In this document: piece by piece, positions 1 to 48,101 of the stretch
Layout of the letters: each line of letters opens with the position of its first letter
Numbering within the stretch: position 1 is the stretch's first letter
From: Takakia lepidozioides
Lineage: Eukaryota; Plantae; Bryophyta
DNA: 64,000 bases
Direction of reading: 5' to 3'
NCBI GenBank assembly: GCA_030704615.1
Contig: CM060732.1
Coordinates: 18,414,001-18,478,000 of the forward strand
Program-made: the position numbers and the translations under genes
Notes under the pieces: model-generated
Databases searched by the model: none
Told to the model about the DNA's origin: nothing
The model's input: only the letters and a program-made list of their open reading frames with translations

Positions 1-1
1 G

Positions 2-430
2 ACCAACCTAGCACCACCAGAGTTGCTCAAGAGAGCATATGATTCCATTCAACGGCCACCCAGTCTCACGGTTGAGGGCATTTTGGACCAAGGGAGGCAG
101 CCACAGAGGGTGCGACATGATGACCATCCACTTTTGGTGGTGGTTAATCGAGTGGGACAGCCACGTACGGCCTTGCCTACACTTGTGAGATTTCCCACGT
201 CTCATGCTTTTCAAGACAATGGTCCAGGGTTGATTTGGGACAGTGCACTACAGCAATTGATGGAGCCCAATGCGGATGAGAGAGAGCGGGCAATGGGGTT
301 TGACACAGGCACTACAGCTATGCCAGCTCTATCAGAGGCATCACGCCGATAGATGTTGGGTCAAGCAATGGATCTAAATTGCTTGACATGGGTCATTAGC
401 TTGTGCATGGTTGAGCAACGGAGGTTGTAG
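2..430 (+). pseudogene. C-terminal part of a DNMT3-like C5 DNA methyltransferase domain inside the Gypsy polyprotein
   Basis: Frame 2 reads TNLAPPELL...LTVEGILDQGR...EPNADERERAMGFDTGTT...SEASRR*MLGQAMDLNCLTWVI. This matches the end of C5-MTase motif VIII (WxNL), motif IX (ExERxxGFP) and motif X (RxxxLG). In-frame TAG stops at 350 and 428. Confidence 0.8.
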
Positions 431-936
431 ACAGTGGTGGCTACTACTGCACTCCCATTGGATAGTGCATCCTCCCTGCCAACCGGGACGGTTGAGGCAG
501 TGAGTGGGGGCAAGCACAGGATCATGGGGTGCAAACACCCATGGCAGATGTGGGATCAGATGCGGAAAAAGAGAGTCATTGGGTCTCTCAAGGAGCAATA
601 TGAGGAGTGGGGAGAGCCATACACGGAGGATCAGTTGGAGGCCAAGGTGGCCAAGGCTCTTGAAGAGGTTGAGGATGTTTCTTTTGCGGAGGATGTTTTC
701 AAGGTGGCTATGGCGGAGCAAGTGGAGGCTACGCCATAGTCAGGGTGGGCAGATAAGGCCCAAGAGATTGCTATCTAGCAACCAAAGGTGCGTTTCCTAC
801 TTCCAAGCTTGGTGTACCCAAGGTTGCAGTCACTGAGGACAATTGCGAACCAGATGTCGGATCTACAGTCACTGGAGGAGAAAGACGGAGGATCCAACGA
901 TTTCTAAGGGCTTATAAAAATTGCTTTGCCTTCGGT

Positions 937-2271
937 TTGAAGGATTTGGGGAGTTTGAAGGGCCAGGAGATTCGTATTGATTTGGCAAGTGACACGCCAA
1001 TTTTTCGAAGGCCCTACAGGTATAGTGACATAGAGAGGTCTTTGATCCAGTCGCGGACTATGGAGTTGTTCGAAGCTGGATTGGTGGAGTTGTCAGGTGG
1101 GGGGTATGCCTCGGCAATGGTGATGCCAGCTAAGAAGGATATCTATGGCAATTGGACAGAAAAGAGGATATGTGGGGACTACCGTCCTATGAACCGTCAG
1201 ACTAAGTCCGATAGATATGCCATGCCAACTCCAGAGGAGATCTTTGATGCCATTGGGCATGCAAAGGTGTTTAGCACATTGGACTTGCGATCCGGTTACC
1301 ACCAGTTGCCAATCAAAGAGGCTGACAAGCAAAAGACGGCATTCTGGGGGATTGACCAACATGGGAAGGATTGCTTGTACCAATGGCGGTTCCTACCGTT
1401 TGGGTTGAAAAATGTTCCTACAGAGTTTCAGATGGTCCTGGATAGGATTCTTGCGGGGCTAGACTTTGCCCGGTGCTACATTGATGATATCATCATCTTT
1501 AGTGCCACAGTTGAGGAGCATGAGAGACACCTTCAGGTGGTGTTTGAGCGCTTGAGAGCGCATGGGTTGAAATTGCACCCTGGGAAGTGCAAGTTCTTCT
1601 ACAGCCAGATTGAGTATCTAGGCCACATGATATACCCTGGAGGACTGGGTGTTCAAAAGACGAAGGTGGAGGCCATTCCACGCATTCCACGCCCCATAGA
1701 TGTTAGCAGAGTTCGTGCTTTCATGGGATTGACAAACTACTATCGACGGTTTGCAATCAAGGGATTTAACAGCATTGCAAAGGCTCTTACCAAGTTGACC
1801 AAGGTGGGTCAGGGGTGGCAGTGGGAGGAGGAGCAGAAGGAAGCCTTTGAGGAACTCAAGGTTTGATTGACTTCTGCACCTATTTTGAGGCGGCCTACTC
1901 AGGGGCGGCCTTTCCAGCTACATACGGATTGGAGTATGCTGGGGATTGGGGCAGTGCTCGCACAGGTGGATGATGAGAGAAGAGAGTTTGTAGTGGCATA
2001 TGCTAGCCGTTCGAAGAATGATGCCGAGATGAAGTGTAGTTCCTATGAAGGGGAGTGTCTAGCTGCAGTATGGGCAGTGGCACATTTTAGATGTTACCTC
2101 TATGACAATCTCTTCACCTTTTTCACGGATCACCAACCATTGAAGTGGTTGATGGAGTCAGACAAGCTTAGGGAAGCTTGCACGGTGGGCACTTATGCTT
2201 CAAGAGTACGACTTCCAGGTGGTGCATCGAGCCGGTGTAGTCAATTGGGATGCAGATGGGTTGAGTCATAA
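937..2271 (+). pseudogene. Gypsy reverse transcriptase and RNase H
   Basis: ORFs 937-1866 and 1867-2271 share a frame, separated by a single stop. Motifs DYRPMN, LDLRSGYHQ, PFGLKN, YIDDI, TDWS, YSxxEGECLA-like. Frameshift near 2170. Confidence 0.95.
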
Positions 2272-2359
2272 TCCATGCACGAGCAAACATGATGATACTA
2301 GAGCTCGGTGGCATGGTGAGACGGATGAGGAGATGGGAGGATAGCATGCATCTGCCTTT

Positions 2360-3919
2360 TTGTGCATTCTAGCAATGGGAGCTCAAACTGGTCCATCCCA
2401 TGTGATTGGTCATGGAGATAGTGTGCATGACGATCCAGAGATCAATGAAGAGTTTGGTGGTGCTAAGGAGGTGCATGAAGATGCAGCAGTGTTGGCCTAC
2501 CTTTGTATGGGAGAGACAGCAGCCAATATGACTGCTAAGGAGAGAGATCGAATCCTACAACGGGCCAAGAGGTTCAAGTGGGAGGGGACTTATTTGCTCC
2601 GAGTATGGGAGGATGGACGAGTGAGGATTGTGCCTCATCCAACACAACGAGCGCGATTGGTACGCCATGCCCATAAGGAGTTGGGACATTTTGGGGTGCG
2701 ACGCACTTATGGTTTGCTGCAAGGGCAGTATTGGTGGCGGGGCATGCACACAGATGTGCAACAGTTAGTGGCAAGGTGCATGGTGTGTAATAGGGTGCGT
2801 GCTTCCTTTAATGCACCTATTCCACAATTGCATCCTTTACCCATCATGAGATTGGGATATCGATGGAGTCTTGACTTCGCGGGACCATTGCCACTGACGA
2901 TGCGCCACAACAAGTATGTGCTGGTGATGGTGGAACACTTCTCCAAATGGATTGAGCTGGTGCCATTGTCTGACGAGGCAAGTGAGGAGGCTGCGTATGC
3001 ATTCTTAGATCGAGTGCTTAGCCAATTTGGTGCTCTAGCCGAAGTACTTACAGACCAGGGGAGAGAGTTCTTGGGGGAGTTTCAGGATTTGTGTGAGCAA
3101 GCCTTGATAGATCACCGCACGACTTCTCGGGATCATCCCGAGGCTGATGGCTTGGCGGAGAGAGTTGTTCAGACAGTCAAGAGGGGTTTGCGCAAGTACG
3201 GTTTGCAGAAGGGACACCTGGGAGATTGGGACCTTCAGCTACCTTGGTTGGCTATGGACTATAGGTTCAGCAAACAAGCGTCACTTGCCTCCTTCTCACC
3301 TTACTTTCTTCTCTTCGGCCGAGAGCCAGATTTGCCTACATCTATTCGCAGGGAGGCTGCAGTAGTCCTTGACCTTGATGATCCGGATGTGTGGATACAA
3401 ACGTGTGACCAGCGGGCAGAGTTGTTCAAGAGAGTCATGCCTATGGCTTTTGAGAACCTTGCTATTGCCCAACACCGAGACACATTGAGGTATGCCACCA
3501 TACATGGAGGCGGATATCGACCGGGTGTTCGGAGATTCAACCCTGGGGACTATGTGTATCTGCAGCAGACAGCACCTACGACCTTGGATGTCACAGCAAG
3601 GCGTGTGATTCTATGGGTATGGGAGGTGTTGTCTTCAGGAGTGTTGATTCTGGAGGGTCGAGATGGCATGGTATGGAAGGACCATGTACGCAATTGTGCG
3701 CCATATCACCTTCTACATGTGGATGGGAGGATAGATCCCAACCTTGCAGTGGTACCTACAGGGTTGCGTTGCATGCTATGTGGGCATGCTGGTGGTGCCG
3801 CAACCATGTTGGTGTGTGACAAATGCTCAAGGGGGTGGCACATGGGATGCTTGACACCGCCACTTGAGGAGGTTCCTAGCGGAGAATGGTTGTGTCCACG
3901 ATGCCTTGGACAGAGGTAG
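2360..3919 (+). CDS. Gypsy integrase with C-terminal PHD finger
   Basis: HHCC (HKELGH...CMVC) and DDE core (SLDF, TDQG, ERV). At 3770-3904, CMLC-x11-CDKC-x4-H-x2-C...WLCPRC is a C4HC3 PHD pattern. Confidence 0.92.
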   Translation: MCILAMGAQTGPSHVIGHGDSVHDDPEINEEFGGAKEVHEDAAVLAYLCMGETAANMTAKERDRILQRAKRFKWEGTYLLRVWEDGRVRIVPHPTQRARLVRHAHKELGHFGVRRTYGLLQGQYWWRGMHTDVQQLVARCMVCNRVRASFNAPIPQLHPLPIMRLGYRWSLDFAGPLPLTMRHNKYVLVMVEHFSKWIELVPLSDEASEEAAYAFLDRVLSQFGALAEVLTDQGREFLGEFQDLCEQALIDHRTTSRDHPEADGLAERVVQTVKRGLRKYGLQKGHLGDWDLQLPWLAMDYRFSKQASLASFSPYFLLFGREPDLPTSIRREAAVVLDLDDPDVWIQTCDQRAELFKRVMPMAFENLAIAQHRDTLRYATIHGGGYRPGVRRFNPGDYVYLQQTAPTTLDVTARRVILWVWEVLSSGVLILEGRDGMVWKDHVRNCAPYHLLHVDGRIDPNLAVVPTGLRCMLCGHAGGAATMLVCDKCSRGWHMGCLTPPLEEVPSGEWLCPRCLGQR

Positions 3920-4175
3920 TAGGCATGACAATGGTGAAGTTGGCAAGTGATCGAAGGTCTAGCCAGTGGGAATTCAACGTCATGGATACTCAATTGAAGA
4001 TCACGGATTACAGGCAGACGACTAACGATGGGGCTACTTGTGTACCCGGCCTCTTGATTTATCGACTTCAGATGTTGGGACTTATACGATTGAAGACCAA
4101 GCGATGATCTTATTGGGTGGATACTTGTCAGCTATCCGGTGTTAGATGGACCTAATCACCAGCTAGGGGGGCGAT

Positions 4176-4698
4176 TGTGGCATAGCTTTCTAGGATTGTG
4201 TGCTTAGATTGTGTGTAGACGACGATGTATGTTGTGGCACGATGCTTAGGTGCACGACAGCTATAATGGTTTTAGTCATGGTTAACTAGAATTACCTACT
4301 TCTAGTTAATTAGGACATTTTAGATATTTATATGTGCATTTTGTGTGTTGGGACTTCATTTGGTCTCATATGCCAAGTGAGGAATCAAGCCTCACTTGGG
4401 ACATGGGGATGGGTTTTCCCCTTGTGAGGGTTGAGGAGGCTCATCTTCTGGAAGTTGAGCCTCCATGAGCCTCTCCCACCTCCATAGCTCTAGGTATTGA
4501 GAGGGAGTGTGGGGAGGGCTTTGTAGGGTGGATTCCTTTAGCAAAGGTGCCATTGACTTGCTAGTTTATGTGATTGAGTGGATTCATGAGTGGAGTGTTT
4601 CCATTGTGTGTTCACTTCCATTATCATTGTGGCATAGCTTTCTTAGATTGTGTGTGGACAGCGATGTATGTTGTGGCACGATGCTTAGGTGCACGACA
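4176..4698 (+). repeat. Gypsy 3' LTR with an internal direct repeat at both ends
   Basis: Starts TGTGGC right after the purine tract and ends GCACGACA at the junction with Copia RT sequence. 4176-4259 and 4628-4698 are near-identical. Confidence 0.8.
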
Positions 4699-7600
4699 GG
4701 CCTATGTTTGTCATGTCAAACCTTTTGCTTAGCTGTGCCTGTATCCACTCGATTTTTTTAACATGATCTCCAGTAATGAGAAGGTTGTCTACATACAGGA
4801 CAATAACCATAATCTTTCCATCTTCTATACAATAATATAGATTGTAGTCTGCATTACTCCTATGTAGACCTTGAGCTTTAAGATAGGCGTCTATTATTTC
4901 GTACCATTCACGGGGAGCTTGCTTCAGTCCGTAGAATGCTTTGTTGAGTCTGCATACCTTGCTCTCTTTTCCTTGGACGATGAAACCTTGTGGCTGCAGC
5001 ATGTAGACCAACTGCTTTAGGTGACCGTTGAGAAATGTTGTTTTAATATCCATGTGATACATGGGCCAATTCCGTTGAGCTGCAAGGGCCACTAGAGCTC
5101 TCAAAGTGCTCCACTTGGGCACTGGGGCGAATGTTTCCTCGTAGTCCACTCCTTGACGTTGCTCAAATCACGGACCACCAACCAAGCTTTGTAGACTGGT
5201 TGAGCTTCACCTAAGCCTTGTTTCAGCTTGTAAACTCATTTTGCACTTCGTTCCTCTTGGAAGGTCTACCAGATCCCATGTAGAGTTTCGATCAATACTG
5301 CGCATTTCCTCGATCATAGCAAAGATCCAAGCTGGATCCTTGCATGCCTGTTCAAAAGTCACAGGTTCCTCAGAAGTGGTGACGGTGATTGCGTGAGCTG
5401 CAGGCTTTGTGATTCCAGAGATGATATAATCCTTGTGCCAATCAGGTGCATGTCTTTCACGAGTCGGATATCGTTGAGGTGTTGGCACCGCAGTCTCCTA
5501 ATCAGTTGGAATATTTACTGCAATCTCCTGATCAATTGGAATATTTACTGCAGTCTCCTGATCAGTTGGAGTATTTACTGCAATTTCCTGAGTTGGATTT
5601 ACATCCTCGGGTGCCAGAGTGGACCCTTCCTTATGTGTACTCCCATCTGTCTTTATGAATGGGTCATGTACAATGATTGTATGCCGAATCATTGGTTGAT
5701 ATGGAGGGGTGTCACCTTGAGGAGTAGTCTCCTTTTCTTGGGGAGGAACTAAGTTCCCTGGGGATGGTGGGATGAAATCCCCAAGGCCTGTAATTACCTC
5801 TGGTGTGGTCGAGAGGTTGCGATCAGAGATCTGCAATGAACTCTCATCAAAGACCACGTCTCTGGAGATAACAATTTTTCTCTTCTCTGAGTCAAAACAT
5901 ATGTAGGCTCTTGAGTTTGTGTCGTATCCCAGAAAGATACATTTTCTAGACCTGGCCTCCATCTTTCCTCTTTCTTCTTTGGGAATATGCACATAAGCAG
6001 TGCAACCAAACACTCACAAAAAGGAAAGATCTGGTTTGACCTTGGAGTATTTTTCCTCCGGGGTAATACCAGAATTGGCTTTTGTGGGAGATCAATTTAC
6101 CAGAAAGTTTGCCGTGTTGAGTACCTTTGGCCAGAGATATTTTTCCACTGGGGTAGAGACAACCATGCTCCGCGCTCTGTCCAAGAGAGTTCGGTTCTTT
6201 TGTTCCGCAACCCCGTTCTGTTGGGGCGTGCGTGCTTGGGTCAGTTGCCGATGGATGCCTGCATTTTTGCAAAAATCTTCAAAAGCAGTGGACAAGTACT
6301 CTCCTCCCCAATCTGTTCGAAGCGCTTCGATCTTGAGCCCAGTCTCGTGCTCAGTAAGAGCCTTGAATCTCCGGAAGACCATTAGAGCTTCACAGTTCTT
6401 GCTGATAAAATAAATCCAGGTTTTTCTAGAGAAATCATCTGTGAAGGTAATAAAGTACCTAGACCCCTTGAGAGATTTTGTGGCTAGAGGGCCACATATA
6501 TCAGAGTGAATGAGTTGTAAAGGTTTGTTTGCTCTATTTTCACTTTTCTTTGGAAATGTCTCTCTGCAGTGCTTGCCAAATTGACAACCTTCACATATGC
6601 AGGTAATGAGAGGTAAATAGGGGATTCCTTTTGCCACATTTCAGCTGGACAAGTGGTGAAGGCTTGGATAGTTAAGATGCCCCAATCTATTGTGCCATAG
6701 ATGTACATCAACCTTTCCTTCAACTAGATTGACTTCTATTCCTGGTTTTGGAGGTTTCTTTCCCGTATCAGTGCACTTGCTACTATCAAATACAACAACA
6801 AGATTCTTATTGACTAAAGCTCCTACAGATAGTAAGTTCTTAGTCAGACCCGGTACGTAGAGAACATCATCGAACTCCTTTATTTCTCTAGAATTGCCAC
6901 GAAGGCTCACAGTGCCAGTCCCTTGGAATTTGTGAGGCACTCCTCCAGCTGTGGTCACATTGTAAGACTTGGTGGAGGGTTTGATCTGATCTAGCAGAGC
7001 TGGATTGCCCGTAACGTGCTTGGATGCTCCAGAGTCGATGATCCAAGATGGGTCATTTGTCTCTATTGCCAGAGCTGTGAGTGCTTCCTTAAAGACCTCT
7101 AAAGCTAGGGCCCTCAACATCCTCAGTACTCTCTTCTGCACTAGGATCTAGTATCTCATCGGTGTCACAGTTTGTGAAATGTGCTTCATGGGGACGAGTT
7201 GGCCCTGGCCCGTTGTAGTGAGTACACTCGCGGGCCTAGTGGCCTGTCTTGCCACATTTGTGACAGACATCAGCCTTCTTGGATGATCCTGAGCTATCCT
7301 CAAATGCTCGCTTGGCATTGAAGCGGCCATGATGTTTGCGCTCTTTTAACAACTTCCGGAAACGCACTATGAGGGCATCCTCCCCGTCATTTTTCTTGGC
7401 TCGATTGATCATATTTTCTTCTTCCAAGAGCATGCGGCCAGTCAGCTCTTCCAAGGAAGGAAGCTCCTTCTCACAAGAAATGGCTCGGATGAATCCATCG
7501 TAGCTGTCCGGGAGTGTGTTGATGACCTGCTCAACCACCATGCCATTGTCGGGTGCTTCATCTGTTACGTGTCTCATGAAATCAGCAACTGAACTACCTT

Positions 7601-8027
7601 CGGACATCTTGAGGTTAGAAAAGTGGTGCCTCACAGGTAGCCTCTTGGTGTTGTTCTTGGTTTCGAACATCTTTGTGAGGACCTCCCAACATTCATTTGG
7701 ACCATTGCAGTTCATGATGAACGGGACAATCTGATCCTTGATAGACAATTTGAGGATCGCAAAGGCCTTCCTCAATCTAGATCTCATGGAGTCCGGTCCT
7801 GAACTGACCGATGAGATTTCACTTAGGGTATCAAGGTTCCTGATTCCCCCCAATGGGTTTGTTGGAGATGTGACAATATTCCACAAGTCCTGACTCTCTA
7901 GGATATTCTGGATCCTGAACTTCCACATATTATAGTTCGAGGCTCCCTCAAGTTTGTGACAATCAGAGAGAAGTTGCTCAATTCCAGGCATACTGTAAAG
8001 ACTTACATGACACATGAAACAAAACAA
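4699..8027 (-). pseudogene. Copia gag-pol, fragmented by stops and frameshifts
   Basis: ORFs 7236-8027, 6641-7141, 6092-6637, 5498-6013, 5207-5488 and 4685-5149 are consecutive pieces of one polyprotein. Confidence 0.93.
5491..5590. repeat. 30-bp tandem repeat (about 3.3 copies) in the Copia INT-RT linker
   Basis: Units at 5491, 5521 and 5551 (cagtctcctgatcagttggaatatttactg-like), encoding QE[IT]AVN[IT]P[IT]D on the minus strand. Confidence 0.9.
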
Positions 8028-8263
8028 GAAGAAAAAATATGATAACTCACAGCAGTGGATAAGACTGCACTCGCTTTACGACAAAAGGAACTGATGCACT
8101 GACCACTAGCCTTAAAAGTGTCAGTCACCTAAATCAAAGCACCCGTGTGCTAGCTACTAGCTCTATAGCACTAGTCAGGGTGGGCCCTTACTTCGACTAC
8201 TAACTGTATAGTATCGAGTTGGCTATCCAGAAGACCTCAGCCGCTAATCTTATAGCGCTAGGC

Positions 8264-8275
8264 GCTCTAATACCA
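8264..8275 (-). promoter_or_regulatory. Primer-binding site (initiator tRNA-Met type)
   Basis: Minus strand reads TGGTATTAGAGC, one mismatch from TGGTATCAGAGC, and abuts the LTR. Confidence 0.85.
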
Positions 8276-8546
8276 TGTTGGTTTCGTAAACTAAAACAAG
8301 TCAAGAAACAGAGCACATGAGGTTCCTATAAATACTGAGAAGGACCACTGAGCCCAAGGGGCTGGTCCAAGGCTTGCCCTTGACCCTGAGCTAACAAGTG
8401 GGGTTTCACTACTTGATAATGAGCATATCTACACAAAGCAAGGAATTACAAGTGTCACTGCTAATCATGATAAGAGAAGCTACACTAAGAACCCAAGCCA
8501 CACTAAATAATAAGTGCTGAAACATGAAGAGTGGGTAGTTCCAACA
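8276..8546 (-). repeat. Copia 5' LTR (271 bp)
   Basis: Inverted termini TGTTGG...CCAACA, adjacent to the PBS; flanked by ATTAA (candidate TSD) at 8547-8551. Confidence 0.85.
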
Positions 8547-8832
8547 ATTAAGCTAAGAAGAGGCCTCAAAGAGGGCCCGGAAAACTGCGCACCCCATGCC
8601 AAGGACATTAATACATGGATGGTGTGGCAATGGGACCCAGCAGCCGTATGCTTGGAGAAGTGTACGTGGCCAAGGCAACCTTCTAGAAGGGTCCCACCGC
8701 TGAGGGCTCGGCGGGCTTGTAGAAGGTCCCACCGCCCTGTGAGGGTATATAAAGAGAGTCGGGGGCTCTCTTCCCCTTATTCATCTTTGCTCTACTTCTA
8801 TTAATTTATTATGTCATGGTTTGTGTTTTTTT

Positions 8833-8870
8833 GGGGCCCTGCGTGTGCAGAGCCCCCCCCTAGGTACTAG
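8833..8870 (+). mobile_element. Helitron-like 3' terminus
   Basis: GC-rich hairpin GGGGCCCTGC-GTGT-GCAGAGCCCC (8833-8856), a 10-nt spacer, then CTAG followed by T. Confidence 0.55.
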
Positions 8871-8999: not shown

Positions 9000-9602
9000 C
9001 CCTCCCTTTTCCCCATGCTACTGAGGTCCTGACAGGGGAGGCCGCCAACCACGAGATCAACCTTCTTATCAATGGCTATTCTATCAAGTATCCGTACATC
9101 TCCGACATGTTGGACTTCTGGATACCTTGCTCTTATCACTTGGATTGCTGGTGCACTCTGGTACTCAAATCAGCCCACTCTTGCATTAATGAAATGCCGG
9201 CACGTTGGTATCCATTTGATAAAACTGATAAGTCATGTACTTCACAGCTTGACGAGCTTTTGGCATTGTAAGCATTCTCTCTACGTTTCTAGGAAGTACA
9301 AAAGAAAGAATCATGCTTTAAATATATTGTGTATCTTCATCCCTAAGGAGTTCCGCCCTCCACTTGGAAGATGGACTACGTTTACAAGTGTATCTTGCCT
9401 CAACAACACATTCCCTCCAAGCAACGCCTCATACTAACCACTTTAGAGCTGTAGCCAACAAAAGGGATGCCAAGACGAGAAAGCACTGCCGGATATCACC
9501 AATTCCGTCAAAGAGGCTCAGGACCACAAGCTTGTCTCCCTTCCATGCCCCTGCATCGTTCTTGAAAGCCGTCACCCAGTCTCCATCTCCCTCATATGGG
9601 GC
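9000..9602 (-). pseudogene. Spliced C5 DNA methyltransferase pseudogene (DNMT3/DRM-like), exons for motifs I-IV
   Basis: Exon 9602-9439 (AG...GT) reads KLVVLSLFDGIGDI, then a frameshift, then AVLSRLGIPFVGYSSKV. Exon 9157-9000 (CAG...GTAAGT) reads SAPAIQVIRARYPEVQHVGDVR...KVDLVVGGLPCQDLSSMGKREG, including the catalytic PC. Not in the ORF track. Confidence 0.88.
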
Positions 9603-9709
9603 CTACAAGTTTGTGTAATTTGGGATCATTGTGAATTCTCTTTAGCGTGACCGTTCTTATTGAACTATCCTGTTATGTAGATGCCCTTGCTGTATTCACA
9701 CCAGACTCA

Positions 9710-13552: not shown

Positions 13553-14295
13553 ATGAGTAATCAAGTCCCTGAGCAAAAGAAGGTCAAACTGACCCAGAGT
13601 ATATGGACATGTTGTTCGGTTGGCCAGCTGCTGGGGGCGGTGGTCCTTCATAAAAGGGGAGATGGGGGCCCATCCATGCCCCTCAGGGCATTCTCAATTG
13701 CATCCTTGCTTCTAGGGGCTGGGGCATGTGCTGTTGGTGGTGCACTTCATGCTAGCGGAATTCGAGAGGTTAGTGCCTGTAAGGTGCCAGCTTTTTTGGC
13801 AAATCTTGAATCTGTAGTAATCAGTCTGTTGGATGTGAGGGGTTTTACGCCCTCCAAAAGAGGAAGGGGTGAAGTTATTTTGAAAACTCTCACTACTGGA
13901 AAGCCTTCTGGAAAGCCCCCTCTGCTGTTCCCCTCACCCAACTTTTTTCTGCTCAGTCCAAACAGGGTGCAGGGATTGTGGCCACAAGGCTGTGGGATGA
14001 GAACAAGTTCATAAACACTCTTCTCGCTTTCTCCTGTTCTATCCTTTCCTATTTGTCTAACGTTGTGACTGCTGTTCAACTTGCAGGGTACCAGGAACAG
14101 GGCTAGAGTTGTAGTGCTGATGTCCTTGACATGCATCCTACCAGAATGTCACTGCTGGAGGCCATAAATTCTCAACATTGTTGTCTTCTTTCTGACTAGT
14201 GTATCTCATTGTGGTGGAGGCAGGTAAATGATTTGGTGAGCGGGGGTCAAAAGATTCGACGTGCTCTTGGCAAACCTTCCCGCAACCAGTCATAA
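13553..14295 (+). CDS. Small (95 aa) conserved plant membrane protein, 2 coding exons (13553-13768, 14224-14295)
   Basis: Canonical GT/AG phase-0 intron. Product includes MPLRAFSIASLLLGAGACAVGGALHASGIRE|VNDLVSGGQKIRRALG, with hydrophobic segments, and resembles an uncharacterised land-plant family. Confidence 0.7.
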
Positions 14296-14359
14296 TCTTT
14301 TCTCTTTCCTTCTTTTTGCCTGTTCCTCTCCCTCTCTCTCTCTCTCTGATATCTCTCTC

Positions 14360-16641
14360 TCAATGGCCACAAGGCTACGGCAAACAACGTCTTATGAGTA
14401 CAATCTCTCTCTCTGATATTTCTAGGTCTAACAGTGAGGGGTCTTCTGCTGAATGGAGGGACACAGTTGGAAAAACTGTTCCTATGATTCAAAACAGCCC
14501 TGATGAACTGGAGTATATTTCAATGGCTTATAACGCTCCCATTAGTTCTTCTGAGATTGTGGAAGCAATTGAACATTTAAATGGATATAAAGCTGGTGGA
14601 CCTGATGGTATTGTCAACGAGCTTATCAAGCATGGTGGCGATCCCATGATAAAGGCCCTAGTTCTCCTCTTTAACCTTATCTGGAAGACTGAAATGATCC
14701 CCTTTCGCTGGCGACAGGGGGTCATTGTCAATCTATACAAGAAGGGTGACAGAGAAGAACCGGGGAACTACCGTGGCATCACGCTCCTCAATGCTGTTGG
14801 CAAGACATTCTGCAGAGTTATAAGTACTCGTCTCGAGGTTGATCTGGAGTCTAGAGGTTGTTTCCACGAAGGCCAAGCTGGCTTTCGGCGAAACAGGGGC
14901 TGTGTGGATCATATCTTCACTCTAAGCCAGATTATCCAGGGAAGGAAAAAAGAAGGGAAACCCACTTATGTTTTTTTCCTGGATGTCAAAAAGGCTTATG
15001 ACACTGTGTGGAGAGATGGCCTATGGTTCCGCCTATGGTCTTGTGGGATCAAGGGAAAGATGTGGAGAGTTGTCCACAACTTGTATGCTCACACCAAAAG
15101 CTGTGTCACTGTTAACGGACAGAAGTCCAACTTCTTTGACATAGACCAAGGTGTAGCTCAAGGATGTACTCTCTCCCCTCTGCTCTTCAATGTTTTCATC
15201 AATCAACTCCTTGAGGATGTGGAAAGTGAGGGATTTGGGTTAAGGGTGGGTGATACCACCATACCAGCCCTTATGTTTGCGGATGACTTCGCAGGCATAG
15301 GGGAGACTCCAACCAATCTCCAGGAGTTGATTGATTGCGCGAAGAGATACTTTGATCTTTGGGGGCTAGAGGCTAATGTCAGCAAATGTGCAGTGGTAGC
15401 ATTCAACGACAGAGGAGAGGGAGGAAGTGATCTTAAGTGGCAGTGGGGTAGCCAAGAGATCCCGGTCCTCCCTTCCTACACTTACCTGGGCGTTGAGTTT
15501 TCCTCCAATTGTAATTGGGATGCACATATCCGGAAAGTTGTTCAAACTGGCAAGGGCAAAGCTCTGGGGCTCACTAAATTTTTCTACTGCAGAGGGGTCA
15601 ACTCTGAGGTTACGAAAACCATGCTTTGTTGCGTTATTAGACCTGACCTGTCTTAGAGTATGGATCTGCAATATGGGTTGATAACTCCAACCAGGCTAAG
15701 TCTCTAGAATCCATTCAAGTGGGGGTGCTTAAGGAGTGTATGTCAGCATGCTCCAAAACAGCCAATGTGGCTGTTCGGGGTGAGTTTGGCATTCCGTCCT
15801 TAAGCTCCCGACGAGATGAATTCAAGGTCAGATGGTGGGGTCAGCTGCAACATATGCCCAACACCAGATATCCTAAGCTAATCGACTCTATATCTTGGAA
15901 ACAGGACCGCCCTGTCAAACAGGCTAAGTCCTGGCAGAAGAGAGTAGAAGAGATTCTCAAGGACCTGGACCTGGATCCGCAAGTCTTGACCCTGCTGGAT
16001 AATCTGACTTAGAGGCTGTAGTGTCCAAAGCCATGTCTGTTGCCATGAGATTGTCTGATGAAAATGAAGTAAGGCAGAAAACTTCCCTGAACTTGTTTCT
16101 AGTCAGTGACATGGGGGAGGACATCTTGGATGACCTCAAGGGTCTACCCACTCTCGGCACTAGACTGAAATTTAAACTCAGGGCAGGAAGCCTACCTTTG
16201 AACAGCAAACAGAAGCAGAGAGGAAAGGGAGAGTGCAATTGCCCGTTGTGTAGGCAATCTGAAGACAGTATTCATTTTCTGATACACTGTCCGGGGTTCT
16301 CTCACCAAAGAGACGCTCTCTTCAAATCTATCAAGGGAATTGTGCATGTACCCCTGTTTACCAACTTTGAAAGTCTCGAGACTGAGCCAAAAGCCCAGGC
16401 CCTCCTGAGGCCTAGTTTTTGGGCAAATCACACACAGCAGATTGATGCTTGTGTGAAGGGATTTCTAGAGGATATCTGGAATACCCGGATTAATTCTATA
16501 TATGAAGGTAAGTCTTACTACCAACGTCAGCCCCTGACAGAGGTAGGTTCTGTCCCTTTTGTTCCCGCTCAAACTGGGCGCGGGGTCAATGGCCACAAGG
16601 CTACGTCAAACAACGTCTTATGACTACAATCTCTCTGATAT
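14360..16641 (+). mobile_element. 5'-truncated non-LTR retrotransposon (LINE; RTE/RTEX-like, clade uncertain) with a duplicated 3' end
   Basis: RT motifs GPDGI, NYRGITLL, QAGFR, LDVKKAYD, GVAQGCTLSP, FADD and a C-terminal CPLC...HFLIHC finger; no endonuclease. A GACCT duplication near 15645 causes a frameshift. 14360-14420 duplicates 16586-16641. Confidence 0.9.
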
Positions 16642-21534: not shown

Positions 21535-24500
21535 TCAAGAACAGCAGCTTGACTTTTGTGCAATGGCCTGGCCCTTCATCTGCACTGTGTTGGGCTTACT
21601 GCTGCTCAGTGCTGGTTGGCTTGCCATCCTGCTCCCCAACCCTCCATGTCACAATCTGCATTTGGAAGATTACCCACACTATTTCTGACTTGCTAAACTA
21701 AGGTTCGTACTTCTCAGCTCCGAGAGCTGGATTTAACAAGTGGGACAAGTACAGCCCATAGAAACCTACAGAAAAGAAAGAGAAAGAAGGAAACTGATTT
21801 CTTCCAAGAGGTGGGCTTGAGTCATAAAAACTTTGATGATGGGAACATACCTGTTCTTGATTTCAGCAGCCATTGTCATGAAAGCCTGTTCAACATTGTT
21901 GGCGTTCTTTGCACTGGTCTCCAGGAAAGGGATGCCAACCTCATCCGCAAATGCCTGCAGTGTAAGGTCCATGGTAACATTGCTTGCTTCATTTATTGTG
22001 TAATAACCTTGGCAAGCTAAGTGGATATGGGCTGAGAAGCCAGTACGTATTGTACATATTCTGCATACTAATAGTGGGGACCTCTTCATCTTTTCCATCT
22101 TTTTCTAGGACAGATTATTCTGCCTCTCTCAAGAAGAAAACAAGCTAAAATGATGGAGACCGATGGCTGCTATCACGTAGTGGCTCAGGAGGGGTGCCTT
22201 ACAGGAAGCTCATAAGCCCTACTTTCTGGTGATGCATGACTCAGTAATCGAGCAATTTAGCTGATGTTTGTTTGTGTCCTTCCCCTACAAGTTCTTCATG
22301 GACGCGGATGCCTTTTTACAAGGCGCAAATGGTCTTGTGATGCTAAGAAGAGATTACAGGAACAGAGAGGGCTCATCTAAAAAATACCTTGGCAGTCTGG
22401 GTGTCCACCACCTTTTTGCCAACAAGATCAGACTTGTTCCCAACCAACAGCTTGTTTACGTTTTCGCTGGCATAGCGATCAATCTCATTCAACCACTGCT
22501 TCACATTGTTGAAGCTTTCTGCATCTGTCACGTCATATACCACCTGCTCGCAAGGTTGCAACAACTTGTGAGATTTTGAAAATTGCCATTTGTAGAGATA
22601 ACAGTCTCCTTTGGAAATCTAACCCTCTTGGTCTACCATTGTTGCATAGAAATCTTGGTCACATTTCCAAATAAGAAATAACACTATCCACAATGATGAG
22701 GCCACCAGTGTCTGCAATCCCACCAGAGTATCAGCATGTCAAGCAATGCAACTAAATGGGGAGAAGGAAACAGCAGATGTACAATGATCCCATGAGCACC
22801 CCGATAGTAGCTACTGGTGATGGTCCGGAATCGCTCTTGGCCTGCTGTGTCCCACTGCCAACATATCACCCCCACACAAGTTCTTTGCACTTTTCAGCTA
22901 AAAAATGTGGACTCTTGCCAAAGCAAGTAACTTATATTCTCACATGACCCCTGAAGGGCGACTGCCTTTCAATGGGAAGGTGGACACCTTTATGACATCC
23001 AACACACTTATGTGATTTTGAACCCACAACCACTAGTGAAACATATTGACACTGGGCTATCTATTGGACGTCCTTTTCTGCTAACATATATCAAAGTGAG
23101 AGCCTAGTAAGCTCTGAACTCACCTTTGTGAGGTAAGCAAAGATAAACGAAATGAGATAGCCACATCCAAGGTAAAGAAGGGCTTTCAAAGATGAAAACA
23201 GGAATATCACACAGAAGAAATAAATAAAAAGAGGAAGGGAACCAGAAAGAATGCTGTTTCATAGTAGACAGTCAATCTAAGAGTAGAAACGAATAAACTA
23301 CATCCTTGTTCAATAATGCAAACATACCATGGAAATGGATAAAGAAAACAGGAATTTCAGAGAAAGACACTAAAGTCTCTAAGACAGCTAATACCGTCCC
23401 ACTGTAGAAAGGTAGATAGAAGTGACGGAGGTAAGAAGACATACAATCTGAAGCTTAATCGTCTTCCCATCCAGCTCAACTGTCCTTATTTTCTGTGTGT
23501 CAAAATTCCAGTCCAACCTATTCATAAAAAGTTCCAGTAGTATCTTCCTATAAAAACAACCAAGGTGAACGTGGCCCAAACACGTGCAAAGTTCAGAGAG
23601 CAAGAGCATTCATAAACCTGCCAAGAGTCCAACACATTGCACAGACACCCTCAAGTTTGCTGTCAGGCCAGATTTTGTGTTTTCAAGGGGGTTCCTTAAC
23701 TGGAAGTACTGAGGTATGTTGTCAATTCCATTGACTCAAATAAAAACGCCCAAAGAAACTTACAAAATCGACACCAATAGTACTGATATAGCTCTCCAAG
23801 TAGGAGTCATCCTGCACCACCAGACAAAACCCCTTCATTAGTGTAGCAATATCATCTGTCCAAGTATAGAGTAACAGCTCTATACAGGTATGAAAGGTAA
23901 TCCAAACAGATGTTGCATGAGTGCCAGCAGGTTGCTATAATAGAGCTGCCTTATACTAAGCTAGAGATTTGAGTCTAACTAACCAACATTGATGTCTACA
24001 TTTCTGCACTTATGAAACATCCAAGAAGCAGGCTCATTAAAGCTTCTCAATTTCCATTTAATCATATGACCCGAAATATAGGGTTGTCATGAGCTTACAG
24101 CAAACCGGAGTAAAAGGCACGACTTTCCAACACCCGAGTCCCCAATCAGTAGCAGCTTGAAGAGGTAGTCACTGTCACCAACCCATTCATGCATTCCATG
24201 AGTCCAATAATATGGTAGAGAGAGAGAACATGCCAGCTTATACCAACATCTGCTAATGGTTAACCACAACTCACTGCCATTCTTTGACACCATGCAAGAA
24301 GGTTTGACCACGATTTGAAACTGTGGACAATTCCTGATTTTCTTGACAAGGTGGGAGGTGCTTCATAGAACAAGACAGGTCTACTCCCTGGAGGCCAAGA
24401 TGAATAGACACGGCCCTTCAGACCCCCACCCTTGACTATCCCTTCTGCAGTGCGTTCTCCAGTTGCTCAACTGACTCGTTGCTCAAGTGCTTACTGACAA

Positions 24501-27813: not shown

Positions 27814-28344
27814 TCACCGATTCCTGACTCGACCAAATTTCGGCCTATTTGCCTTCCTCTCCATCTTTTCCATTTTTCGCTTCTCTTTCTCATTCATGGG
27901 CGAATCGTCACTGGTCCGTTGGAAGAAGAAAGGATAGAGGGCTAGTTGCCACAACTTGTAGAAAGCAAAAATGGGAATCACAAGGTACACAAACCAGAAC
28001 TTGCCAGAGATTATGGACGAAACCTGGACAAAGCTGGTGATATACAGAATGTCATGGAGGTAAGCGCAAAGTCCCCCAGTGCTCATATCAAACCCACCAT
28101 CCAACAGCTCCCCTGTGCTCTCATCGAAAGAGGGTTTGGCCATCCTCGCCAGCTGGTCATACACCAGCTTGTAAGCACCTGTTGTCACGCACAATCCTAG
28201 TCCATCCTTCCATGACAGACTCCCATATCGCATTCCAAGCCTCAACACAACGTACAGAGCATTGCATATCAGAATTACATTACGCAGCATGCGCATGTGC
28301 TTCTCGTTCTCCTCCTTCCGTTTTTTTGCGCCCTTGTTCGCCAT
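27814..28344 (-). CDS. TMEM208: Transmembrane protein 208 / SND2 homologue (DUF788), intronless, 176 aa
   Basis: MANKGAKKRKEEN...LLDGGFDMSTGGLCAYLHDILYIT...LVIPIFAFYKLW with a basic C-terminus; single open frame from the ATG at 28344. Confidence 0.9.
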   Translation of the reverse strand: MANKGAKKRKEENEKHMRMLRNVILICNALYVVLRLGMRYGSLSWKDGLGLCVTTGAYKLVYDQLARMAKPSFDESTGELLDGGFDMSTGGLCAYLHDILYITSFVQVSSIISGKFWFVYLVIPIFAFYKLWQLALYPFFFQRTSDDSPMNEKEKRKMEKMERKANRPKFGRVRNR

Positions 28345-38890: not shown

Positions 38891-40693
38891 ATGCCACGTG
38901 TTTATCGACGTGTCACGCTTGAGGATTCGTTGCCGGCTGTGCCACAACCACCTGCTGAGGGCGAGACAGCACGTTCGCCTCGTCTACGAATTAGGCGGCA
39001 TCGCCATGTCCGCACAGCTTTGCCCCCACGACCACCACCCCGAGGTCATAGGCCGCCAAGTCCAGAGGCACGAGCCCCGGGGAGACCCCGCCGGGACCGC
39101 CTCCCCAAGATTGAGTGTTGGTGCAGTTGGTGTTGGGCACGACTACCGGTTGGGAGGACCACACCGATGATGCGGCGACCCCATGTTGTGTAAAAACATT
39201 ACGCCAAGTACGAGATTGCTGATGCAGCAAAGGTAAGTCGTCCATATATCTTCTCACGTACTCCTCAATTAAAAGTACTATATCTAATGAAACCTCGCGT
39301 TTGTGAATTGAGTATGGATGCATTTCATATCATGCATCTTGCAGCCCCATCTTGATGTCCAAGCTCGCAATTTTTTTGCTGAAGAGGAATACCGATACGG
39401 GTTTCTTCCTTCTTACGAGCCCCACCCCGTTCCAGATGTGAACATTTTTTTCTCGCAACATGACGTAGATGCAGTTTGTGAGGTAGCGGGGTACGATGCG
39501 TGTTTTTCTATTTTTGGGCACTAGGCTAGGTGCTTGCCACCTACGCACACAAATTCGTCATCCTCGACATCGGCACCCCCATCATCCGCATCGTCCGTTC
39601 CTCCTATTGTAGATGGTCTTTCCTCATCACCATTGCCATCCGAGGTCCCTCATACCGACCGGCTACGTGTCCCTTCCTCTCCATTGCCGAAACCACAACT
39701 GCCACCGAGTCTGAGTTCGACATCCTCGACATCGACACCCCCATCATCACCATCATCCGCATCGTCCGTTCCTCCTATTGTACATGTTATTTCTTCATCA
39801 CCATTGCCATCCCGGCCATCTCGGCCAGTACTACCTCCACTTGAGATCCCTCATACCAACCTACGTGGTCTCTTCCCCTCCATTGCCGAGACCACAGCCG
39901 CCACCGAGTCCGTATCCGGGTCCTCCGGCAGAACCCAGATGGATCCCACCACCTTTGGGGACTGTGTATGACTGGGACCAATGGATCACTAGGTTCTCAC
40001 TCCGGGAGAAGGACCCCCGAAGTGATGGACGGGCGCCACCCCCTAGGAGAGGTGGACCGAAGTTGTTTCGCACGGTTGGTTCGCGCCTTCGCCGGCCTGA
40101 TGACGGCACCATACGTCATCGTGGTGCTAGGGAGCTATTCACGATGGGAGTCCAACCCCATTTCTACCAATGTCTTGTGTCTTGTCCAGTTCCGATTCCC
40201 GAGGGTGAGCCCTTTCTTTTTTGGGGTCGCATGTGTTGCGTGATGGAGGCAATGGACCCTAGTATGGGTTGCGGATTTTTTTTTATAGAGGATGTAGTTT
40301 TGGGGGGGGGGAGAGGATTCTGTGGATTTGTTCTCCTATTTTGGGCCGAGGTACACCCACCGGGAGTGGCAATTATTGCAGACACACGGCCTTGGGTCCT
40401 TGATCCATCCTTACATCCTTGTTGTGAACGACAATGATGTAAGGGCGAGAAATTTGGGCCGCAAAACCCATATTTATTGTGACGGAAACCCCGATGTGTA
40501 CAGCAACGTGGCTGGGCTCATCAACAGTTCAGTTACCTTACCGCCGGGCCACACCGCCAACGTGTTTTGGGATGAGCGCCATGACGGGGATAGTAGATTG
40601 GACCCTAACATCACCACTTTTGTGATGACATGTGCAAGGAGGACTATTAGGGCTGGAGAGGAGTTGTTTGCAGAGTATGACTTTAGGCGTTAG
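38891..40693 (+). pseudogene. SET-domain protein gene with Pro/Ser-rich N-terminus, TE-associated, disrupted
   Basis: MGCGFF (GxG), YCDGNP...NVAGLINSS...ANV and RTIRAGEELFAEY followed by a stop match SET motifs. Exon 1 has CWCSWC...H; intron about 39233-39344. Lesions: TAG at 39522 and frameshifts near 39180, 39865 and in homopolymers at 40276-40311. Confidence 0.75.
39559..39910 (+). repeat. Internal duplication (about 150-190 bp x 2) in the Pro/Ser-rich linker of the SET gene
   Basis: catcctcgacatcg.cacccccatcatc...ccattgccga.accaca.c.gccaccgagtc at 39559-39711 and 39721-39910. Confidence 0.8.
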
Positions 40694-41302
40694 CCGACTT
40701 TCATCATTTGTAGATGGACATAGGAAGACATTTTGTATATTGAGGTGGCTTCCTCCACCGTGTATATATATACATAGGCATTGATGTGTATTTGGATGCA
40801 GTTTTTCATGCTATATTCAAGGGAGTTTGGGTGGACGTTATATGTGAATTTGGGTATTTTGAATTATATAGTGTCTCCTTCATGTGGTGAAGCAATGTAT
40901 GTATTCCCCTCGTGTGTACAATGTGTACTTTGGGTTTTATCCTGTATGATAATGAACAACGCCATGTATGGAAATTGATAATGACATGGTTGTTTTTGGG
41001 CATCTTAGGATGCCGGCCACAACCCCACGACGTTAATTCATGAAGTTCATGATCTTGTCATGAACTGGGATTTTGTTCCTTCGGAGGGGGGTGTGTATCA
41101 AAGGGACCTGACAATTAAAAAAAAAAGACCATATCATGTTGGCTGCCATTGTACCGTATGAGTGTTCCCATTTCATGCTTATTATTACTTTGGATTTTAC
41201 ATTAATCTTCTTTTCTTTGGCGCAATTCCGATGGAAGATTGATGAGTGATGTAATCATGTAGTAAGATGTGTCATTCGTTATGAAGTATAATTAGCATAC
41301 AG

Positions 41303-43695
41303 GACTTACTGTTTGCTCGGGGTTGAGCACTAAAGGGTACCACACATGCCTGCATTGTGGCGATGAACTTGATGCACAAAGCTCCAACAATCTTCGCAAG
41401 ATGGTGTATCCCAACTACCGCAAGTTTTTTCCTATGAGCCATCATTGGAGAAGAAGAGACAAACACTTATTTGATGGCAAAGTGGAGTTACGTCCCCCAC
41501 ATGTGACACCATCCGGGCACTTTTGGGAAGACCGATGGAAGAAGGCTCATCCGGAGGGGTCTGGTGAAGTGGAGGTGCGCGGCATGAAGCGGCTTTCAAT
41601 CTTCTACGAGTTGCCATATTGGGCAGTATATATTCCACAAAAACACCATCAATATTGCTATGCATGCATGTGATATTGCATGTTTTGTATGATTTCCATT
41701 GTCACTTTCACGACAAAATAGACGTGTAAGAATTTGTGGGTGGGGATATGTGTAGGACCTGAAGATTCGTCATCTTCTAGATCCCATGCATATTGAGAAT
41801 AATGTTTGCTCGTCCTTTTTTCGTGTTCTTTATGGCACGCCGGCAAAGAATGGAGTGGCTGCGAAAAGAGATTCTCTCGGTGTTAGAAAGGAACTTGAGG
41901 AGCAGGGTCGCATGCCCCATCTATGGGCCGAAGAAAATGGTGTGGACCTAAAGGGTGTTGTACGGTGGAAGTATAGGCGTGCACCTTGGCAATGGACAAA
42001 GGAGGAATACAAAAAAGTGATAGCCACCATAGGAGCTGTCCGAACATCAACTGGTTATGGGTCATCCCTCCGTATGAAGTTCAACGAAGACGGGGTCCAT
42101 GGTTTGAAGTCTCATGACTACCACAATCTATTGCAAGACATCTTGCCCATTGCAGTACGTGGGACATTGACTCCCGAGGTTCGCGAGACGGTCTATAGAT
42201 TGGGAGCATTGTTCCGGTGGATTTGCTCCAAAGAGTTGGAGGAAGCGCACTTTCCACGCATGAAGAAGGAGGCGGCGGTGGTCATGTGTATGTTAGAGAT
42301 GCACCTTCCTCCCTCCTTCTTTGACATCCACGTGCACTTGGTAGTGCACTTAGTGGAAGAGGCTTCGATTGCCGGCCCCGTTCATTCTCGGTGGATGTAC
42401 TACCTTGAGCGATACATGAAGACTTTGAAAGCACATGTAAGACAAATGGCACACCCGGAGGGTAGCATGGCGGAGGGGTATACATTGCAAGAGGCTATGT
42501 TCTACTACATGGAGTACTTGGCAAGGGTGGATAAGGAAGCCCCTCCGATGTGGAAGGAAGATGAGGATATACGAACCAAGGACATCGTTTTGCCCAAAAA
42601 TTCAAAGAGGGTAAAATTACCCATCATGGTGATTAACCAAGCGCATGAGTACATACTGAAGAACACCCCATCCATACATGAGTGGGAGACAAGATACAAT
42701 AATCTTGTTCAGCAACGACAGGAGGAGACGGTTGCGTGGAGGCGGAACCATGCAAAAACGACTACACGCGCTCCGCGAGCAAGGGGCCGGGGTAGGAATA
42801 TGCCTTCATAAGAATTGCCCATGGAATTGCAGCCTCTAAGTTCATTCCGCCATTGGCTTCGGACTGAAGTAGAGGATAGCATTGCGAAAGGTGAGGTGGT
42901 TTCAGATTTGGTGCAAGACATTGCAAGGGGCCCCTCTCAATTTGCGACCTCATACACGGCGGTTTGGGTTCATGGTCGTCATTTCCGCATTCGTGCTCTT
43001 GACATGAAGCGCAAAACAACGGCTTGTGTGCCTCATATTAGCAAGACTCCGTGTGGGGCAGGGGAGATACACGACCATGCGCACACTCAACTACTTTGGA
43101 GAGCTTGAGAGCATACTCCAACTTCAGTATACAAGGCACCAGCCTCTTATCTTCAAGACAAGGTGGTTCCAGCCACATCTTGTGGGGCCATCCGCAACAA
43201 TAGTGGAAGACGAGTCTGGTTTCATGCGCGTCAATACAGATAGGCTCGAGTTTACTTATCGTCCCTCCGATGAGCATTTTTCATGGCCTTCAGACATAGA
43301 GCAAGTTTTCTTTTCCGGATCGGAAGGTGGTTGTGCATGCTCACCCAAGAGGAAGACGTATCTATCATGATCGGGGATCTACATGGGGCGAGGCAAATGC
43401 GGAGGAGGAAGAGACTGGTCATGGTGACACTGATGTTGGCTGAGGTTGGATAAAGGGGATACAAGAGAATGATGACGCCCCGGACAATGTATCCCGGACC
43501 CTATACGATGAGGCTCCATTAGATGCGGATGTTGGAGAAGAAGATGAAGACATGGTCATTGAAACCGAGGTGGAAGATGATTCAGATATGTCTTTTGGTG
43601 ACCAGGCCATTTATGACAATGATTTTGATGAGCAAGAAGACTTGCAGCTTGATGATGACGAAGAAGCTCCGGATAATGATGTTCAAGTTGATTAG
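41303..43695 (+). pseudogene. CACTA (En/Spm) TnpD/Tnp2-type transposase, N-terminally deleted and decayed
   Basis: KGYHTCLHC, SIFYELPYW, intron, LDPMHIENNV, GLKSHDYH, PPSFFDIHVHL, GPVHSRWMY...ERYM, HPEGSMAEGY (DUF4218-like), then NYFGELESI...FKTRWF (DUF4216-like) and an acidic tail. TIRs not identified. Confidence 0.92.
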
Positions 43696-48030: not shown

Positions 48031-48079
<49 letters not shown>

Positions 48080-48101
48080 ACCACCCCTGCTGGCGGTCGC
48101 A
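47390..48101. repeat. Palindromic TGCGACCACC array 2, with (TA)n at about 48036-48076, upstream of TTATAA at about 48161
   Basis: Same motif as arrays 1 and 3, but internal to the element. Confidence 0.9.

Follow-up and report, generated by a model that had tools for sequence, protein, structure and literature searches.

A decayed Gypsy retrotransposon with a DNMT3-like domain, very probably of the KnitGypsy-Dnmt3 kind, in the moss Takakia lepidozioides

DNA methylation is the main weapon of plants against transposons, and elements that themselves encode a methyltransferase have previously been reported only from algae and protists. At the left edge of a 64,000-nucleotide stretch of the Takakia lepidozioides genome (assembly GCA_030704615.1, contig CM060732.1, forward-strand positions 18,414,001 to 18,478,000; hereafter the window) lies a dead retrotransposon that carries a DNMT3-like cytosine methyltransferase (DNMT) domain and is very probably a Ty3/Gypsy element of the same kind as KnitGypsy-Dnmt3 from the alga Klebsormidium nitens. 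An earlier note, made from the letters of the window alone, had read it as one polyprotein coupling a DNA-methylation writer to a histone-reading PHD finger. Here we describe the element together with its relatives from bryophytes, chlorophytes and a metagenome scan, and propose a role for the enzyme in its life cycle.

The element, its domains and its relatives

The window opens inside the methyltransferase and runs on through reverse transcriptase (RT), RNase H (RH), integrase (INT) and a complete C4HC3 PHD finger, the last four of which Pfam recovered where the earlier note had placed them (Table 1). Beyond the end of that open reading frame (ORF) the element continues past 3919 to 4698, through a polypurine tract and the repeats B, A and B. 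Stops at 350, 428, 737, 1864 and 2342 and two frame changes, near 790 and 2170, bear out that this copy is dead. Methyltransferase motifs I to VI, the protease (PR), gag and the 5' repeat lie left of the window and are read from relatives only; with the protease supplied in this way, the Ty3/Gypsy order of protease, RT, RNase H and integrase holds. Pfam found no chromodomain after the integrase, where the PHD finger stands instead, which sets the element apart from the chromoviruses.

Table 1. Coordinates of the element's features in the window
Feature	Position	Strand	Remarks
DNMT3-like C5 cytosine methyltransferase, C-terminal part (end of motif VIII, target-recognition region, IX, X)	2..427	+	frame 2; about the C-terminal 40% of the enzyme; stop at 350
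Linker at the end of ORF1, DNMT frame kept	428..775	+	decayed: stops at 428 and 737
Conserved in-frame TAG, then CAA-CCA; likely programmed readthrough site	776..784	+	junction of Gag-PR-DNMT and RT-RH-INT-PHD
Reverse transcriptase; YIDD at 1477-1488	880..1863	+	Pfam RVT_1 E 1e-31; frame change near 790, stop at 1864
RNase H	1867..2170	+	Pfam E 5e-27; frame change near 2170
DDE integrase: H2C2 zinc finger 2639-2803, core 2855-3139	2639..3700	+	Pfam H2C2 E 2e-16, rve E 5e-15
PHD finger, complete C4HC3, at the integrase C-terminus	3770..3904	+	Pfam E 1.4e-10; ORF stop at 3917-3919
Polypurine tract-like run, directly 5' of repeat B	4165..4174	+	
Repeat B, copy 1, CA at its end	4175..4259	+	
B/A junction (CA, two bases, start of A), decayed in the window	4256..4265	+	10-bp palindrome in relatives; putative integrase attachment site
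Repeat A, 3' copy	4262..4626	+	in relatives also makes up the entire 5' end
Repeat B, copy 2, the 3' end of the element (CA)	4627..4698	+	insertion point in Copia RT

Searched alone, the methyltransferase piece of the window matched nothing in Pfam or among PDB sequences; among proteins, 54 sequences proved homologous at E<=1e-3, many of them with PF00145, and they include Mp4g09160 (64% identity over 116 residues), Mp8g17980 and Mp6g11220 of Marchantia polymorpha and proteins of Calypogeia fissa and Sphagnum jensenii. The profile check proposed in the earlier note thus succeeded for the PHD finger and, through these homologues, for the methyltransferase, and failed for the window's own piece of it. 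The full-length relative P0004 finds its best alignment with human DNMT3A/B, and through it the window aligns to DNMT3A from the last three residues of motif VIII onward, with motifs IX and X included: the earlier reading of these motifs stands, as does its statement that only the C-terminal part of the enzyme lies in the window. An AlphaFold (AF2) model of P0004 (pLDDT 91.6) returned from Foldseek only DNMT3A/B/C chains among the matches listed (best E 2e-19, target TM 0.83, DNMT3A). The methyltransferase piece is DNMT3-like in sequence and, as read from the model of this relative, in predicted fold.

Among the relatives the domain is intronless and unrearranged, with motifs I, IV, VI, VIII, IX and X in linear order (the window spans only the end of VIII to X), and motifs I, IV and VI are kept in frame, as the earlier note had anticipated. 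In 179 full domains, collected by similarity, the catalytic cysteine is present in 175, the motif VI glutamate in 178 and the motif VIII RxR in 172. Many algal-type domains have E-C-Q in place of P-C-Q in motif IV (WECQD in 77 and FECQD in 11 of the 179), with the cysteine kept. Judged by dN/dS, the element's methyltransferase is under purifying selection: the ratios for the window piece are 0.16, 0.15 and 0.13 against the loci L004, L007 and L021 and 0.23 against L041 (seven further pairs being saturated), ratios that are rough because dS is near saturation and that carry the less weight for a maintained enzyme. RT gives 0.07-0.10 against L007 and L027, and close dead copies give 0.26-1.3, as decay predicts. 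An association of DNMT and RT conserved with dN/dS below 1, which the earlier note had made a test of its reading, is thus found. Phage methyltransferases match in 425 records, the best 25 of 425 at only 24-31% identity, so that no close donor is apparent among them, and viral contigs gave no match.

A single metagenome scan yielded 63 loci, which follow the order gag, zinc knuckle, protease, DNMT, RT, RNase H and integrase as far as their contigs reach, the sole exception among those mapped being L055 (RT-RH-DNMT-INT); a PHD finger follows the integrase in the 3' ends, among the loci listed. The complete architecture, Gag-protease-DNMT-RT-RH-INT-PHD, is found in the Marchantia, Calypogeia and Sphagnum relatives as well as in metagenome loci. 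The methyltransferase is therefore part of the element itself, flanked in relatives by protease and RT, and is present in other copies. Contig depth summed over the host runs is 60,687 across window positions 1-324 and 62 at a host-type DNMT3 gene (9073-9700); such depth, which is not usable as a copy number, shows that the methyltransferase part is highly repeated and nothing more. These observations bear on the possibility that the piece stands there by chance, or is a pseudogene taken up from the host, and in either case does nothing for the element. Its lack of a Pfam or PDB match when searched alone would fit that possibility, as would the separate host-type DNMT3 piece 9 kb away in the same window, but the latter lies on the opposite strand, contains an intron and shares no more than 31% identity with the bryophyte-type element domains in full-length alignments. 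We reject the possibility as most improbable, given the homologues, a position that is the same, after protease and before RT, in dozens of loci, purifying selection and the repeat-like depth over 1-324.

The clade is not restricted to land plants. A search for integrase-PHD proteins gave 150 representatives, with the PHD finger detected in 137, the methyltransferase in 77 and the order RT-RH-DNMT-INT-PHD in 35, including proteins of Scenedesmus sp. PABB004, Haematococcus lacustris and Chromochloris zofingiensis. These chlorophyte relatives belong to the same methyltransferase clade and have the domain after RNase H and before integrase; algal-type relatives encode DNMT, integrase and PHD side by side in one ORF, and most of them have the DNMT inside Pol. 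In a FastTree phylogeny of the domain (51 sequences, with four long branches and two duplicates left out, and midpoint roots) the element domains form one group (SH support 96), separate from five phage enzymes and from the host-type pieces, the host being represented by an 89-residue piece that fills 25% of the columns; a search for a full-length host DNMT3 to place in the tree found no match. The group splits into domains that precede RT, including that of the window (88), and those in the order RT-RH-DNMT-INT (96), and in the RT tree the window likewise joins the loci with DNMT before RT (99). The simplest reading of these trees would be a single capture of the methyltransferase followed by its relocation within the element. 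The earlier suggestion of a land-plant novelty must be given up, since the same clade occurs with integrase and PHD in chlorophytes and a Gypsy element with DNMT3 has been published from Klebsormidium.

Three long-branch relatives (P0183, P0201 and P0203) have DNMT before RT in a single ORF, a third arrangement. The protein P0046, labelled a DNA cytosine methyltransferase of 'Candidatus Obscuribacterales', is near-identical to L039:782-1756, and the element protein P0300 is labelled Minisyncoccia; both probably stem from retroelements of eukaryotes whose DNA was assigned to bacterial genome bins.

A conserved stop between methyltransferase and reverse transcriptase

The frames of DNMT and RT are continuous except for one stop. 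Among 40 de-duplicated junctions, a stop followed by CAR stands at the expected place in 35 (29 TAG-CAR and 6 TAA-CAA); one more has TAG-CAA at a different spacing, and four have no stop with CAR, L044 among them showing two consecutive stops there. As a control, CAR follows only 22 of 324 decay stops within domains. The linker varies from about 590 to 730 nt depending on subfamily while the stop is constant, and in L001 a single intronless frame of 2064 codons holds two stops, one of them the TAG-CAA-CCA of the junction. The annotated proteins Mp4g09160 and Mp8g17980, and those of Calypogeia and Sphagnum, end 95-97 residues past motif X, matching the expected site, and in host-genome contigs no alternative letter at a 3% share of depth is listed at 776-784. 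The stop at 776 is thus a feature of the family and not of decay, which makes 431-775 a genuine ORF1 linker; the earlier description of a decayed linker is right for the stops at 428 and 737 and wrong for this one, and the single polyprotein is in fact split, with DNMT on one side and RT, integrase and PHD on the other. Positions 776-784 match UAG-CAR-YYA, which we take to be a known leaky stop context. A conserved in-frame stop in such a context suggests that ORF1 is Gag-PR-DNMT and that RT-RH-INT-PHD is made by readthrough, a conclusion drawn from sequence patterns that we consider probable.

Several points weigh against readthrough. The 40 junctions are not independent, since they represent about six subfamilies and include near-duplicates. 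The largest subfamily reads CAA-CCC, so that the strict CAR-YYA context is limited to 5 of the 40 (the window, L001, L012, L039 and L041, which span four subfamilies), and a conserved RNA stem 3' of the stop was not found, five of six folds having z > -1.5 and only that of L041 beating shuffled sequences. The largest subfamily also reads CAA-CCC-ATG, with an ATG six bases past the stop. Were the stop a true terminator, Pol would have to be translated by reinitiation, from an internal start or from a spliced RNA, and the role of the methyltransferase would be either unchanged or a non-catalytic binding of DNA. Such an account could draw on this ATG and on a literature search that found nothing linking CARYYA to a retrotransposon (subscription journals and Repbase lay outside its coverage). 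It is nevertheless improbable, because the ATG is absent from the window, L001/L012, L039 and L041, all of which have the strict hexamer instead, and because both ORFs are in frame across subfamilies.

Repeats, integration and the PHD finger

At the 3' end of the window copy the purine run, B, two bases, A and B follow one another, all within a Copia RT. The 5' end of relatives is A alone in 10 of 10 cases (L046 and L047 being one insertion), and none of the ten has the form A-B-A-coding-B; the 3' end is B-A-B in L022, L049, L052 and L058 and a single B after the purine run in L021, L023, L045 and L046. Repeat A starts with TGTCA (TATCA in L052) and repeat B ends with CA, so that relatives have TG...CA ends, of which the window shows the 3' CA only. 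Target duplications of 4 bp are exact in three of the four loci with both ends (L021, L046 and L052) and carry one mismatch in L026, and no target-site preference was seen among the flanks listed. The layout, A-coding-B-A-B (4175-4698 in the window), is therefore that of DIRS elements, and two complete direct long terminal repeats (LTRs) are not present, the 5' end being A only and the 3' end B or B-A-B. LTR finders would probably miss the A...B forms, as these have no LTR pair.

The B/A junction of L004 is a 10-bp palindrome, and the same palindrome occurs about 175 bases past a G-run in the distant L055; by chance 0.4 would be expected over all 434 kb, and the two that were found both lie at this place. 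Repeat B begins at the purine run, and with a primer position past the end of A reverse transcription should yield B-A...B-A. A tRNA (TGG-type) primer site was not found after repeat A, and self-priming of the Tf1 type is weakly hinted at by a self-complement of 7-11 nt, about 30 nt past a TATA-like box, which stands at the expected place in only 4 of 9 repeats. From the arrangement of the ends it seems likely that the element integrates through the palindrome inside the repeat rather than through the outer ends of its complementary DNA (cDNA). The A...B product would arise from a one-LTR circle or a double cut, and A...B-A-B from a head-to-tail circle opened at one junction; in L022 and L058 the A-to-B joint is a clean head-to-tail join. 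Terminal redundancy for further copying is found only in forms with a second A. The integrases of HIV and foamy virus cleave palindromic LTR junctions, a precedent for such a route.

It is also conceivable, if quite unlikely, that the methyltransferase binds or methylates the palindrome and so chooses which junction the integrase cuts. The palindrome contains symmetric CAG/CTG cytosines, it occurs together with DNMT and PHD in both subclades, KnitGypsy-Dnmt3 likewise combines a DNMT with split repeats, and none of the ten 5' ends shows A-B-A-coding-B, despite the two junctions expected to be open to the integrase. At its centre, nevertheless, the junction differs in sequence among copies, and a part in the choice of junction is conjecture.

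The PHD finger is a complete C4HC3 in 237 of 263 integrase proteins, and the position two before the histidine, that of the cage tryptophan, holds glycine in 209 and tryptophan in 1 of the 237. The nearest structures are KDM5 PHD1, CHD4, PHF21A, ATXR5, AIRE and UHRF1, types which we take to read the histone H3 tail without K4 trimethylation. The element's PHD thus resembles readers of the unmethylated H3 tail and probably steers the integrase away from active promoters. The ADD domain of DNMT3A reads unmethylated H3K4, and in an unlikely alternative the PHD finger would recruit the element's methyltransferase in the same manner, and the enzyme would do its work in the nucleus once insertion is complete, either at the new copy and the sequence beside it or across host chromatin in general. 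The finger belongs to the appropriate unmethylated-H3K4 type, and the adjacency of DNMT, integrase and PHD in a single ORF in algal-type relatives would suit such recruitment. In the bryophyte-type subclade, however, DNMT and PHD fall on opposite sides of the stop, with RT and RNase H between them, and a protease is encoded, so that writer and reader are probably separate proteins; a physical coupling of the two, as the earlier note would have it, is not supported, the PHD being on the integrase, beyond the stop.

The rest of the window holds further elements and genes. The Copia element (4699-8850, minus strand; gag, integrase and RT) has its RT split by the insertion described here, and its LTR (about 8277-8850), preceded by a polypurine-like G-run, may be shared with an upstream element. 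The host-type DNMT3 piece (9001-9560, minus strand) comprises motif I followed by a frameshift and an intron, and beyond these motif IV with a splice donor; it matches PF00145 (E 1e-7), has only DNMT3A/B/C among its best PDB matches, shows a flat depth of 62 and is truncated by repeats at about 8990. A long interspersed nuclear element (LINE) with RT lies at 14232-16620 (plus strand), exons at 21769-24362 (minus strand) resemble those of a Rab1 GTPase, judging from a motif, and an intronless TMEM208/SND2 gene occupies 27817-28344 (minus strand). A transposon-like cluster (40298-57100) includes a SET-like ORF (40298), a DUF4218 ORF (41756), a RING finger (49718), a kinase-like ORF (54849, minus strand) and 51-bp and 120-bp repeat arrays, and a 51-bp tandem array closes the window (62950-64000).

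A proposed role for the methyltransferase and its place among known systems

We hypothesize, with a probability of roughly 0.57 for the explanation as a whole, that the methyltransferase is made at the level of the coat protein and methylates the element's new DNA copy before insertion. ORF1 comprises Gag, zinc knuckle, protease and DNMT, with a single in-frame stop before RT-RH-INT-PHD; occasional readthrough would give little Pol and much Gag-PR-DNMT, so that each particle would carry many methyltransferase molecules. Reverse transcription from the polypurine tract, possibly with Tf1-like self-priming, would then produce B-A...B-A DNA, the integrase would cut the internal CA-nn-TG palindrome and so leave the A...B or A...B-A-B ends and 4-bp duplications that are observed, and the PHD finger on the integrase would direct insertion to chromatin free of histone H3 trimethylated at lysine 4 (H3K4me3). 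New copies that arrive already methylated, and in quiet chromatin, could then be mistaken for old, silent host DNA. That methylation of its own cDNA is the purpose of the enzyme is, taken by itself, favoured by a narrow margin over the contrary.

Published experiments and base composition bear on this proposal. In its favour, DNMT3 domains of SymbioDIRS-Dnmt3 were reported to methylate CG in yeast (PMC5890265). Against it, KnitGypsy-Dnmt3 gave no methylation in yeast, a result described by its authors as inconclusive (PMC5890265). The observed/expected CG ratio of the element (0.46) is that of the neighbouring Copia element (0.46) and less depleted than that of the LINE (0.35), so that no footprint of self-methylation is visible, and for CG and CHG depletion alike the element is no different from its neighbours. 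Since most algal-type relatives keep the domain in Pol, the clade does not need dosage at the coat level. In 8 of the 150 integrase-PHD relatives RT-RH-INT occurs in a protein where no DNMT was detected.

From the conserved stop one would expect the enzyme in amounts like those of the coat protein, and from the internal attachment site a route of integration that departs from that of standard LTR elements. The Marchantia polymorpha carriers (Mp4g09160, Mp8g17980 and Mp6g11220) make the question of what retrotransposons do with their own methyltransferases accessible in a genetic model for which methylomes and methyltransferase mutants exist. More tentatively, and with the balance tipped somewhat against it, the sequences might represent an ancient Gypsy clade spanning the green lineage, from chlorophytes to liverworts and mosses, that combines an active DNMT3-like enzyme in its particles, integration through a palindrome and PHD aim at H3K4me3-free chromatin. 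If so, bryophyte genomes with high copy numbers would have in this clade a source of de novo DNA methylation that has gone unnoticed, and some 'hypothetical' Marchantia genes would be ORF1 of such elements.

Parts of this organization are known from other systems. DIRS elements of the Ngaro/PAT type have split direct repeats and a circle-junction-like sequence inside the element; DIRS/Ngaro integrate by a tyrosine recombinase without target duplication, whereas the window family has a DDE integrase, TG...CA ends and 4-bp duplications, which rules out membership. Tobacco mosaic virus and plant retroelements such as SIRE1 have a leaky UAG-CAR-YYA between two ORFs; in the window family, by comparison, the stop falls past protease and methyltransferase, which places an epigenetic enzyme in the abundant product. 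Troyka elements, with CG...CG ends and a 3-bp duplication (PMC12440569), are excluded as the source of the odd ends by TG...CA and 4 bp, and the target preference NCGN of Phygy (Neumann et al. 2019, PMC6317226) fits none of the four duplications. The terms 'PHD' and 'methyltransferase' were not found in the accessible text of that paper or of the Apopellia genome paper (PMC12885004), and nothing further came from the accessible text of PMC11982613.

Other elements share single traits. Gypsy-7a_cRei of Chlamydomonas reinhardtii (Craig et al., PMC9940879) is described as a PHD-bearing Gypsy polyprotein with subdivided LTRs and a bias towards intergenic insertion; no methyltransferase is among the domains listed there, and it is by description, not sequence, that the two are set apart. 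The EpiLTRs/DAM-LTRs (Fernandez-Moreno et al. 2026, 10.64898/2026.05.21.726589) are LTR elements that also pair a DNA methyltransferase with a histone reader, but are described with a chromodomain, not a PHD, and with an adenine methyltransferase and a DNMT4-related enzyme; the available text treats the streptophyte Gypsy-DNMT3 as separate and previously described. SymbioDIRS-Dnmt3 (PMC5890265) resembles the window family in its A-coding-B-A-B repeats and in having DNMT3 in the coding region.

The closest known element is KnitGypsy-Dnmt3 (de Mendoza et al. 2018, PMC5890265), cited as a streptophyte case by Sarre et al. 2025 (PMC12344493) and in 10.64898/2026.05.21.726589, as far as their available texts go. 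It shares with the window family an intronless, unrearranged DNMT3-like domain in a Gypsy element under purifying selection, and DIRS-style A-coding-B-A-B repeats despite Gypsy-type enzymes, a kinship by architecture alone, with no Klebsormidium-named protein among the matches listed. As described, its methyltransferase lies in the Pol ORF, whereas in the window family DNMT and RT keep the same frame with a conserved stop between them; the window family has a C-terminal PHD finger, a word absent from the text of that paper (figure aside); and the clade of the window family reaches chlorophytes, whereas the acquisition of DNMT3 is presented there as an event of the K. nitens lineage only. An opinion article (Morozov et al. 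2019, PMC6338049) counts green algae and charophytes as carriers of retrotransposons that encode a methylase, and holds that land plants such as tracheophytes have none. Our literature search, which left subscription journals and Repbase outside its coverage, turned up no bryophyte report of the element and no description of the leaky stop or the internal attachment site. A range that includes land plants and chlorophytes, a stop that would place the methyltransferase at the level of Gag, and a putative internal integration site thus appear as additions to a known kind of element.

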